DNA from: Dehalococcoidia bacterium
Lineage (GTDB): Bacteria > Chloroflexota > Dehalococcoidia > Lucifugimonadales > UBA3495
Direction of reading: 5' to 3'
DNA length: 64,000 bases
NCBI GenBank assembly: GCA_965262485.1
Contig: OZ253540.1
Span: 1,044,711-1,108,710 of the forward strand
Position numbers and translations under genes: made by a program. A model generated the notes under the pieces. It had not been told where the DNA came from, did no database searches, and worked only from the letters and a program-made list of their open reading frames with translations. This document shows positions 3,534-63,867 of this stretch, one piece after another (positions within the stretch are counted from its first letter, which is position 1; each line of letters starts with the position of its first letter).

Positions 3534-3714
3534 CTAGCGCCTGTTGACAATTAGCAAACCAACCCGTCACTCCTGCGAAGGCAGGAGTCCAGAGCGCGCA
3601 TGATGAAGGAATCAGAGCCGTGATTAACGACTTCGGCCATTGGATTCCCGCCCCGTATCAAGTACGGGGTGACGTTCTTTCGCGGGAACGACGGTATTTG
3701 TCAACACACCCTAG
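3534..3714. mobile_element. Class-1 MITE-like inverted-repeat element, copy A (CTAG...TGTTGACAA...TTGTCAACA...CTAG)
   Basis: Shares ends and interior with the copies at 62337-62537 and 63693-63867. It is bounded by CTAG on both sides and has no ORF. Confidence 0.8.
3652..3677 (-). repeat. 26-nt hairpin module GAACGTCACCCCGTACTTGATACGGG nested in the loop of the ATTCCCGC/GCGGGAA hairpin
   Basis: Identical 26-mer at 49873-49898, 61187-61212 and 62384-62409. The homologous hairpin at 63803-63822 lacks it. Confidence 0.85.
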
Positions 3715-49736: not shown

Positions 49737-49955
49737 CAGGGCAAACGCATTCTAACTTTAGGGGACCTCATATACCGTCATTCCCGCATATACCGTCATT
49801 CCCGCGAAAGCGGGAATCCATACAGCTTGCTTCCATACAGTTGACGTACAACCAAAGGACCTGGATTCCCGCCCCGTATCAAGTACGGGGTGACGTTCTT
49901 TCGCGGGAATGACGGACGCCAGCAAAGCCGATTAAATTAGAATGCGTTTGCCCTG
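49737..49955. mobile_element. Class-2 MITE-like element, copy B (19-bp perfect TIR CAGGGCAAACGCATTCTAA, 10-bp direct repeat ATTGGCGAAC)
   Basis: TIRs at 49737-49755 and 49937-49955. Direct repeats at 49727-49736 and 49956-49965. The interior carries ATTCCCGC hairpins and the 26-nt module. Confidence 0.85.
49873..49898 (-). repeat. 26-nt hairpin module nested in an ATTCCCGC/GCGGGAAT hairpin loop
   Basis: Identical 26-mer in the identical GAAA|...|GC context on the minus strand, as in the other copies. Confidence 0.85.
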
Positions 49956-61057: not shown

Positions 61058-61249
61058 CTAGGCCATGCTGACATTTGAGATATAAGGCGATTTCGCTAAC
61101 CCCAGTTCGTCATTCCCGCGAAAGCGGGAATCCAGAGTACTCTAAATGTGAACGATGTCTGCTTTCCAAAGCGCCTGGATTCCGGCCCCGTATCAAGTAC
61201 GGGGTGACGTTCTTTCGCCGGAATGACGTGAAATGTCAACAGAACCTAA
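61058..61249. mobile_element. Class-1-related MITE-like element, divergent copy C (CTAG...TGACATTT...AAATGTCA...CTAA)
   Basis: Ends are related to copies A, D and E at the same 7-nt offset from the flanking YTAR. Interior has hairpin, spacer, then a hairpin carrying the 26-nt module. Confidence 0.6.
61187..61212 (-). repeat. 26-nt hairpin module nested in an ATTCCGGC/GCCGGAAT hairpin loop
   Basis: Identical 26-mer. The host stem carries a compensated C:G to G:C swap relative to the other copies. Confidence 0.85.
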
Positions 61250-62336: not shown

Positions 62337-62537
62337 CTAGAGCCTGTTGACAATTAGCAAACCAGTCCGTCACTCCTGCGAAAGAACGTCACCCCGTACT
62401 TGATACGGGGCAGGAGTCCAGAGAGGGTATGACGAAAGAGTCAGAACCGTGGTTAACGACTGCGGCCACTGGACTCCCGCTTTCGCGGGAATGACGGTGG
62501 TTAAGCGGGAATGACGGTATTTGTCAACACATCCTAG
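62337..62537. mobile_element. Class-1 MITE-like element, copy D
   Basis: About 95 % identical by eye to copy E, apart from a 26-nt insertion at 62384-62409. CTAG at both ends. Confidence 0.85.
62384..62409 (+). repeat. 26-nt hairpin module nested in the CTCCTGC/GCAGGAG hairpin loop
   Basis: The same 26-mer in a different host hairpin. The homologous hairpin in copy E (63725-63753) has the loop empty. Confidence 0.9.
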
Positions 62538-63692: not shown

Positions 63693-63867
63693 CTAGAGCC
63701 TGTTGACAATTAGCAAACCAACCCGTCACTCCTGCGAAAGCAGGAGTCCAGAGAGGGTATGATGAAAGAATCAGAACCGTGATTAACGACTGCGGCCACT
63801 GGATTCCCGCTTTCGCGGGAATGACGGTGGTTAAGCGGGAATGACGGTATTTGTCAACACACACTAG
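63693..63867. mobile_element. Class-1 MITE-like element, copy E (both hairpin loops unoccupied)
   Basis: CTAG-AGCC-TGTTGACAA...TTGTCAACA-CACA-CTAG. Serves as the reference copy for the family. Confidence 0.85.

Follow-up and report, generated by a model that had tools for sequence, protein, structure and literature searches.

Hairpins that carry the tag CGTC have been described under several names, namely as CGTC-tagged repetitive extragenic palindromes (REPs), as dRS3, and as NTS; they are found in hundreds of copies per genome and in many phyla, and Ssn, their partner nuclease, was described only in 2025 (PMC11893778). In the CGTC-1 family, the CGTC tag is followed by an 8-bp stem starting with AT, a 4-nt loop, and a CCA tail (Di Nocera et al. 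2013, PMC3733652), and this family has been equated with dRS3 of Neisseria. CGTC-tagged REPs form mosaic intergenic arrays, their presence within palindromes and genes has been noted, and they are reported without a dedicated transposase (PMC3733652). For NTS (Neisseria transformation sequence-type hairpins), the consensus CGTCATTCCCGCGMAVGCGGGAATCYRG has been given (Chenal et al. 2025, PMC11893778), as well as a degenerate pattern, SRM (Ssn-related motif), which reads HGTCWYN(0-2)YYVSBRHN(0-5)WNVSBRGN(0-2)RNCYNB (PMC11893778). SsnA binds its own hairpin in single-stranded DNA (ssDNA), and its cut lies upstream of the tag or motif by a few nucleotides; its activity is abolished by a change in the stem sequence even if the structure is kept (PMC11893778). 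Concerning REPINs, these move as doublets, whereas singlets are held to be immobile (PMC3116915). The present study concerns a window of 64,000 nt (C1:1044711-1108710) in the genome of a Dehalococcoidia bacterium (4.15 Mb, 60% GC, 3 contigs, with about 7% of the genome missing from the assembly), in which a 26-nt unit, itself a tagged hairpin, is present or absent as a discrete entity in the loops of NTS hairpins; such exact filled and empty sites give a handle on the multiplication of these repeats.

The unit (AACGTCACCCCGTACTTGATACGGGG) consists of AA, the tag CGTC, a single A, the 7-bp stem CCCCGTA, the loop CTTGA, and the stem TACGGGG, and its hairpin has a predicted fold of -7.6 kcal/mol as ssDNA. 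It was recognized by comparing the copies D, E, and A of one host element (Table 1). According to the initial annotation, D and E differ by about eight substitutions and one clean 26-nt indel, and the global alignment yields exactly 8 substitutions and a single gap of 26 nt. In D, hairpin 1 reads CTCCTGCGAAAG[AACGTCACCCCGTACTTGATACGGGG]CAGGAG, its counterpart in E CTCCTGCGAAAGCAGGAG; in the wider reading, ...CGTCACTCCTGCGAAAG[AACGTCACCCCGTACTTGATACGGGG]CAGGAGTCC... of D corresponds to ...CGTCACTCCTGCGAAAGCAGGAGTCC... of E, such that the loop is indeed occupied in the former and empty in the latter. Copy A, too, is organized as had been described, with loop 1 empty, loop 2 filled by the reverse-complemented unit, and the 20-nt duplication shared by D and E missing. 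The length of 26 nt originally given to the unit stands, but its frame (GAAC...GGG) has to be moved one base rightward, to AACG...GGGG. Folded as ssDNA, the filled hairpin 1 is predicted to retain its outer stem, the inner hairpin being flush with the outer 3' arm and 13 bases, all on the 5' side, remaining unpaired. The window contains this 26-mer four times, whereas it did not occur in any of 100 shuffled windows.

Across the genome, 76-77 copies of the unit were counted (up to 2-4 mismatches), 69 of which are identical. NTS hairpins of the form GTCAYTCCNGC-GAAA-GCNGGARTCC harbour 68 of them, all 68 at the same position of the GAAA loop and in the same orientation (target GAAAG^CNGGA), and about 270-310 hairpins of this form are empty. 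Because a G stands on both flanks, unit placements shifted by one base are indistinguishable in the loops. The filled stems belong to at least four types, and loop occupancy by stem amounts to 18/224 for CCCGC, 15/57 for CCGGC, 12/36 for CCTGC, and 12/27 for ACTCCGGC.

Concerning the identity of the host hairpin, the NTS consensus is matched strictly at 144 places in the genome and the degenerate SRM pattern at 310. By eye, the minus-strand hairpin 2 of E agrees with the consensus; hairpin 1 in both D and E, whose stem is ACTCCTGC, represents a variant just outside both the strict consensus and the SRM pattern, its failure to match the latter being traced by reading to one stem position. The host hairpin exhibits every feature of a CGTC-tagged REP (unpaired tag CGTC, TGTC, or CCTC, stem of 8-9 bp starting with AT, loop of 4-5 nt, CCA-like tail); it is an NTS, i.e., a CGTC-1 REP of dRS3 type, and serves as a building block of miniature inverted-repeat transposable elements (MITEs) that duplicate CTAG. 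The unit is a CGTC-REP variant with tag and 5-nt loop, a stem of 7 bp that starts with CC, and no CCA tail, and it fits the SRM pattern at its positions 3-26 (tag through both arms). The unit belongs to the world of CGTC-REP, NTS, and SRM as a nested member or a variant and is no new kind of system. A search of Rfam assigned it to no family, the sole match being sub-threshold, situated inside a coding region, and due to chance.

The 19-nt hairpin taken by itself, CCCCGTACTTGATACGGGG (loop variants CTNGA), has about 256 copies in the genome, with three main 5' tails, AACGTCA, ATTGCGA, and (A/G)GAGCCTG (examples: C1:3904800, C1:184471, loci L009-L125), and its exact sequence is found in many phyla behind other 5' tails, in many cases within the loop of a different tagged hairpin. 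The GAGCCTG form was also observed as an in-frame insert of 27 nt (PVSSTGQAL) in several transposase families, with compensatory changes in the stem. Copies of the whole 26-nt unit are limited to one genus: if up to 2 mismatches are allowed, 18 of 25 sampled genomes of the genus contain it, as opposed to none of 16 other families of the order, and a perfect match exists in 32 of the 54 species genomes of the genus that form the comparison set.

The borders of the unit are given by sites outside NTS hairpins. Two IS630-like transposase genes (C1:3903700-3905200 and C1:1906650-1907860) each contain two units in opposite orientations; these two are about 82% identical to one another, and two further paralogues (the four being 78-82% identical) are empty at both sites. 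At both targets, GTAGT^TCAGG and GAGAAGG^CCAGC, exactly 26 nt are present or absent, and each unit breaks the reading frame, which is restored by removing the 26 nt. From the alignment of empty and filled genes, the borders are therefore AACG...GGGG, as in AACGTCACCCCGTACTTGATACGGGG. A second insertion sequence (IS) carries the unit at TCGAT^CCAGA, with no empty copy to compare. A target duplication is absent from the NTS-loop site and from both IS630-like sites with an empty paralogue, and direct repeats of more than 1 nt do not flank the unit, such that nothing favours a deletion by slippage. Although the sites in IS genes have hardly any homology to the loop context, the unit has the same two ends there, which is the strongest argument for a discrete entity of 26 nt. 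The filled IS630-like copies are diverged by about 18%, and their units differ at 2/52 positions. These sites were also seen filled in the related genome G013 and in other metagenome-assembled genomes (MAGs) of Dehalococcoidia (L010, L046).

The host family of D, E, and A comprises 45 full copies in the genome and corresponds to a MITE, with terminal inverted repeats (imperfect in D: CTAGAGCCTGTTGACAA / TTGTCAACACATCCTAG), a CTAG target duplication, and a length of about 155-201 nt. Both loops are empty in 26 copies, loop 1 is filled in 17, loop 2 in 2, and both loops in none. With lengths of 155, 175, 181, and 201 nt, the copies cover each of the four possible combinations of unit and 20-nt duplication, present or absent, and therefore at least one of the two is homoplastic. 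The initial annotation had considered that the unit might occupy both loops in all other copies, the empty states being assembly collapses; with 26 of 45 copies doubly empty and none doubly filled, the family has a different composition. An artefact of assembly or alignment, with the empty sites as collapsed repeats, is scarcely credible to us: no point in its support was found, the assembly consists of only 3 contigs, filled and empty states both recur many times, and G013, an independent chromosome-level assembly, reproduces the filled D and exhibits clean orthologous differences elsewhere.

The term sister copies, initially applied to D and E, is justified in that, within class 1, the GGTTAA duplication is restricted to these two; it is weakened by the occurrence of the GGTTAA module in a different MITE family and in G013. 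In the two closest relatives used for comparison at this place, the D-E interval is 96% (G013) and 93% (G062) identical. In G013, D is filled in the same loop and has a different duplication spacer (TTGAAGA), and E is missing; G062 contains neither D nor E. The site of E is empty in both relatives and reads GCGTTTGG(C)CTAGAAAGCACG or, in an alternate longer account, GCGTTTGG(C)CTAGAAAG. As D is filled in G013 without E, E was inserted in the present lineage after D had been filled. Either E lost the unit precisely, or it came from an unsampled empty source and the right half of D was converted later; the GGTTAA module, being shared beyond D and E, does not fix the direction of change between them, and the pair is no evidence of a simple insertion into D. 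An exact search of metagenomes for the allele at the D locus, filled or empty, gave 0 matches.

Of 40 unit sites mapped onto G013, about 12 are filled in both species and about 24 lie in host elements that are missing from G013. Clean orthologues that are filled here and empty in G013 were found among them at C1:1488093 and C1:3119126; in the opposite direction of comparison, one site near C1:3948700 is filled in G013 and empty here. The unit thus multiplies mainly as cargo of MITEs, and it is less often gained or lost by itself in a loop that already exists. That the 26 nt are gained or lost as a discrete entity, as had been proposed from the window, is borne out by the IS630-like sites, by these three orthologous hairpins, and by the combinations among host copies, and the evidence for it is now stronger than that of the D/E pair alone.

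A history of hitch-hiking and deletion only, in which a few original entries were copied with their MITEs and the empty hairpins (including that of E) arose by precise deletion promoted by the hairpin, would agree with the lineage-specific insertion of most unit-bearing MITEs and with D having been filled before E existed. We consider it improbable, as the unit is found in at least 8-10 host contexts, four stem types, and three sites in IS genes, and each of the two sister species has fills of its own. Empty NTS are moreover canonical across phyla, whereas the unit is limited to one genus; the lack of flanking repeats mentioned above and a unit divergence 10-fold below that of the host likewise speak against such a history.

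This low divergence is most evident in class-1 hosts, the units of which exhibit 2 differences in 494 nt, whereas the host elements exhibit 131 in 2945 nt (P = 5e-8). By region, variation is lowest in the unit (0.4%), followed by the NTS hairpins (1.7-1.9%), the terminal repeat (4.6%), and the spacer (4.8%). The low variation of the unit points to recent arrival, constraint, or homogenisation, which the data do not separate. Mismatched outer stems are more frequent in filled (13/68, 19%) than in empty NTS (18/269, 7%; P = 0.004), with the two sets ascertained slightly differently, and this hints, weakly, that filling frees a hairpin from whatever preserves the stems of NTS.

Homogenisation is also what the main rival explanation involves. 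The 26 nt might not be mobile themselves, but might be passed between dispersed NTS as a templated patch, by gene conversion or template switching: a break or a stall of replication at a hairpin would be repaired from another NTS copy, with the conserved arms serving as short homology. Such a transfer accounts for the constant position and orientation of the unit in 68 loops without target duplication, and for gains and losses alike; the precise loss in E could have used any of about 24 empty templates of CCTGC type. That exchange happens is evident from the GGTTAA duplication common to different MITE families, and hairpins less variable than spacers are what homogenisation predicts. At C1:3119126, the loop sequence changes along with the unit (the empty orthologue has the loop GCAG, not GAAA), which fits a templated patch transfer better than a simple insertion. 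On the other hand, the three independent sites outside NTS (GTAGT^, GAGAAGG^, and TCGAT^) combine the same unit ends with almost no flanking homology, filled hairpins show no excess of chimeric stems, in which the 5' and 3' arms come from different types (2/68 vs 6/269 in empty ones), and empty templates outnumber filled ones by about 4:1, such that unbiased conversion should erase the unit. As an explanation of the whole pattern, we regard templated transfer as possible but doubtful; it may well cover part of the turnover within hairpins.

Concerning candidate enzymes, the Y1 HUH transposase domain (PF01797, which includes RAYTs) was found in none of 41 genomes (the present one and 40 relatives), whereas control genomes were positive. 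A peel-and-paste mechanism of HUH/Y1 type (IS200/IS605 or RAYT), as proposed for REPs and REPINs, is disfavoured by this absence and appears to us very improbable, although several traits resemble IS200/IS605, namely the lack of target duplication, the orientation-specific insertion at a short sequence, the hairpin at the end, and the targets in ssDNA loops (discussion in PMC11893778). The unit has a single hairpin, whereas that family has two distinct ends, and its tag is CGTC, not GTAG, the CGTC REPs being those reported without a transposase of their own (PMC3733652).

Instead of Y1 genes, the genome possesses two Ssn-type genes for GIY-YIG proteins of 95 aa that are 64% identical to each other, namely Ssn1 (C1:3084747-3085031) and Ssn2 (C1:3375291-3375575), with matches to PF01541 at C1:3084801-3085019 (E = 6.7e-16) and C1:3375300-3375521. 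Ssn1 has the features of the described family, i.e., a single-domain GIY-YIG gene of about 95 aa with the motif on both sides: it lies between inverted NTS at 3084715 (+) and 3085047 (-). Ssn2 is situated directly downstream of seven tandem 41-nt repeats of an NTS variant (CGTCGTTCCAGCGYAGGCTGGAATCC; C1:3374900-3375260). In the genus, CGTC-tagged hairpins stand beside the gene at 11 of 13 ssn-type loci inspected, on both sides at 9; the two most distant GIY-YIG homologues have none alongside. An Ssn homologue in a MAG of Sericytochromatia has TGTC-tagged hairpins with the identical 19-nt core at a distance of 370 nt. Perfect units (0-69 per genome) and NTS (0-291) are correlated among the 54 genomes (rho = 0.83), and both are more numerous where a close Ssn homologue is present (P ~ 1e-4, without phylogenetic correction). 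A search of NCBIfam with Ssn1 gave weak matches of GIY-YIG type only. In PDB, its best matches were WD-40 repeat proteins, which were taken as irrelevant, and a UPF0213 protein (1zg2) was matched weakly. A search for a master gene between unit-type hairpins yielded none, the inverted pairs enclosing only ordinary genes.

On balance, we lean towards regarding the unit as a nested single-hairpin module that is spread passively in MITEs and, occasionally, by a hairpin-guided cut-and-join of its own in ssDNA. On a first level, it is mostly passive cargo of transposing MITEs. On a second level, the 26 nt occasionally enter or leave alone, with fixed ends, in fixed orientation, and without target duplication; entry preferably takes place at the 3' edge of the GAAA loop in an NTS hairpin (GAAAG^C) and more rarely at non-hairpin sites followed by YCRG. 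A nuclease of the Ssn family (GIY-YIG), cutting upstream of the CGTC tag, may take part in this cut-and-join. We infer its participation, and that of any particular enzyme, because the 5' end of the unit lies at the Ssn cut position, two Ssn genes are present, and HUH/Y1 is absent; the 5' border, 2-3 nt upstream of CGTC, constitutes a positional agreement alone. How the 3' end and the joins would be made is part of the same inference.

Several observations, besides the loop change at C1:3119126, weigh against this reading. GIY-YIG nucleases hydrolyse DNA without a covalent intermediate, and joining would need a further activity. Given the stem specificity of SsnA, an NTS-specific Ssn need not recognise CCCCGTA/TACGGGG. 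All Ssn genes of the genus are NTS-flanked, none having the unit's own hairpin beside it, and two genomes rich in units, G060 (14 units) and G050 (13 units), have no Ssn match. With the number of NTS taken into account, no significant link between loop occupancy and Ssn is left (P = 0.13, 54 genomes, without phylogenetic correction). In the loop context, the full SRM pattern is not matched by the unit, as the 3' tail (RNCYNB) is missing; a full match exists only at IS630 site 2, where the flank supplies the tail by chance. Finally, the orientation of units exhibits no bias with respect to local GC skew, the skew being too patchy for a fair test.

A bolder version would have the unit as a mobile DNA element in its own right, the smallest known, moved as ssDNA by Ssn GIY-YIG nucleases together with joining functions of the host. 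We hold it to be unlikely; if true, no earlier case of repeats proliferating through a GIY-YIG ssDNA nuclease would be known, and the multiplication of NTS, CGTC-REP, and SRM across bacterial phyla would be explained.

Table 1. Copies of the host element, their hairpins, and the 26-nt units in the window (positions counted from the first nucleotide of the window).
Feature	Position	Strand	Remarks
Copy D, class-1 MITE-like host element, 201 nt	62337..62537	+	CTAG to CTAG, two inverted NTS-type hairpins, hairpin 1 filled
D hairpin 1, filled	62368..62421	+	CGTC-ACTCCTGC-GAAA(G)-[unit]-(G)CAGGAGT-CCAG; NTS variant, CCTGC stem
26-nt unit in D	62385..62410	+	AACGTCACCCCGTACTTGATACGGGG; borders from empty vs filled IS630-like paralogues
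D hairpin 2, NTS-type, empty	62469..62497	-	CCGTCATTCCCGCGAAAGCGGGAGTCCAG
20-nt half-hairpin duplication of D	62485..62519	+	GCGGGAATGACGGTGGTTAA, then GCGGGAATGACGGTA
Copy E, host element of D, 175 nt, both hairpins empty	63693..63867	+	CTAG on either flank; inserted in this lineage only
E hairpin 1, empty	63724..63751	+	CGTCACTCCTGCGAAAGCAGGAGTCCAG; vacant insertion point between 63740 and 63741
Copy A, host element of D/E type, 181 nt	3534..3714	+	hairpin 1 empty, hairpin 2 filled, without the 20-nt duplication
Unit in hairpin 2 of copy A	3651..3676	-	reverse-complemented; orientation relative to GAAA loop as in D
Unit in NTS hairpin of another host element	49872..49897	-	26-mer search of the window
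Unit in CCGGC-stem NTS hairpin, third host element	61186..61211	-	26-mer search of the window

Some further observations concern the surroundings of these elements. The CTAG duplicated at D and E overlaps the TAG stop codon of the neighbouring minus-strand gene (L149, L150, around 2650-2660); E, missing from both closest relatives, is a recent insertion. Half-hairpin duplications, consisting of the tag, the 5' arm, and about 7 nt (20-21 nt in total), recur beside NTS hairpins, in the window at 62485-62519 and 63815-63849 and elsewhere in the genome at C1:3084670-3084740, upstream of Ssn1; at least two variants of their spacer exist (TTGAGGT, GGTTAA). At two places (C1:2076389 vs L184 and C1:2673453 vs L191), the unit-bearing MITE lies in opposite orientations in the sister species, which could be due to inversion in place or to re-insertion at the same target. 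At several orthologous sites between genes, the sister species has a different repeat, of ATTGCGA type (L173, L186, L198), where the present genome has an NTS-bearing MITE (C1:1094582, C1:2453489, C1:3656524), and intergenic spacers appear to be insertion hot spots. Along the 4.07-Mb contig, GC skew flips its sign many times, without definable replichores, which suggests many rearrangements or assembly joins at repeats.

For the question of how CGTC-REP, dRS3, and NTS repeats multiply, the filled and empty sites define a unit of movement (26 nt, which begin 2-3 nt upstream of the tag and end at the hairpin's foot), a preferred target (the 3' edge of the GAAA loop, just before C), and a tempo (few unit events per about 4% sequence divergence vs many MITE transpositions). 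A vague question thereby becomes accessible to defined assays of Ssn proteins on oligonucleotides and plasmids. The sites also call for caution, as high copy number and identity of a tiny repeat can stem mainly from riding larger MITEs.

Among the known systems, MITEs resemble the host and not the unit: the host has terminal inverted repeats, a CTAG duplication, and a clean empty site in relatives, whereas the unit has neither terminal inverted repeats nor a target duplication, its only inverted repeats being its own stem, and it is too short for a double-stranded circle or a DDE synaptic complex. The SDR repeats of heterocystous cyanobacteria (Elhai et al. 2008) are reportedly hairpins of 21-27 nt that are nested and whose mobility was inferred from comparisons of filled and empty sites; they differ in phylum and sequence, and had no known link to NTS or Ssn at that time. 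With the REP/REPIN-RAYT and IS200/IS605 systems, the unit shares the short hairpin with a 5' tetranucleotide tag, the ssDNA logic, the orientation specificity, and the absence of target duplication, but there is no Y1 gene here and it is a singlet that behaves as the unit; having one hairpin only, and with no PF01797 in the genome, it does not correspond to a miniature element derived from IS200/IS605 (PATE) either.

Compared with the families CGTC-1 to CGTC-4 (PMC3733652) and with dRS3/NIME of Neisseria, the host hairpin equals CGTC-1, and the unit resembles CGTC-2 to CGTC-4 in tag and 5-nt loop; the present case differs in that one tagged hairpin occupies the loop of a second, always at one fixed nucleotide, with exact empty sites for comparison, and in that the organism belongs to a genus of Dehalococcoidia (Chloroflexota). 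Concerning the NTS/SRM-Ssn system (PMC11893778), that study contains no nested motifs, filled or empty sites, or mechanism of spread, and the unit departs from it by its stem CCCCGTA, its 5-nt loop, the absence of an RNCYNB tail, and the lack of a unit-flanked Ssn gene here. The host hairpin, in turn, matches the NTS consensus, the single-domain GIY-YIG genes of about 95 aa are present with one NTS-ssn-NTS arrangement, and the unit shares with that system the layout of tag and hairpin as well as a 5' border at the position of the Ssn cut.

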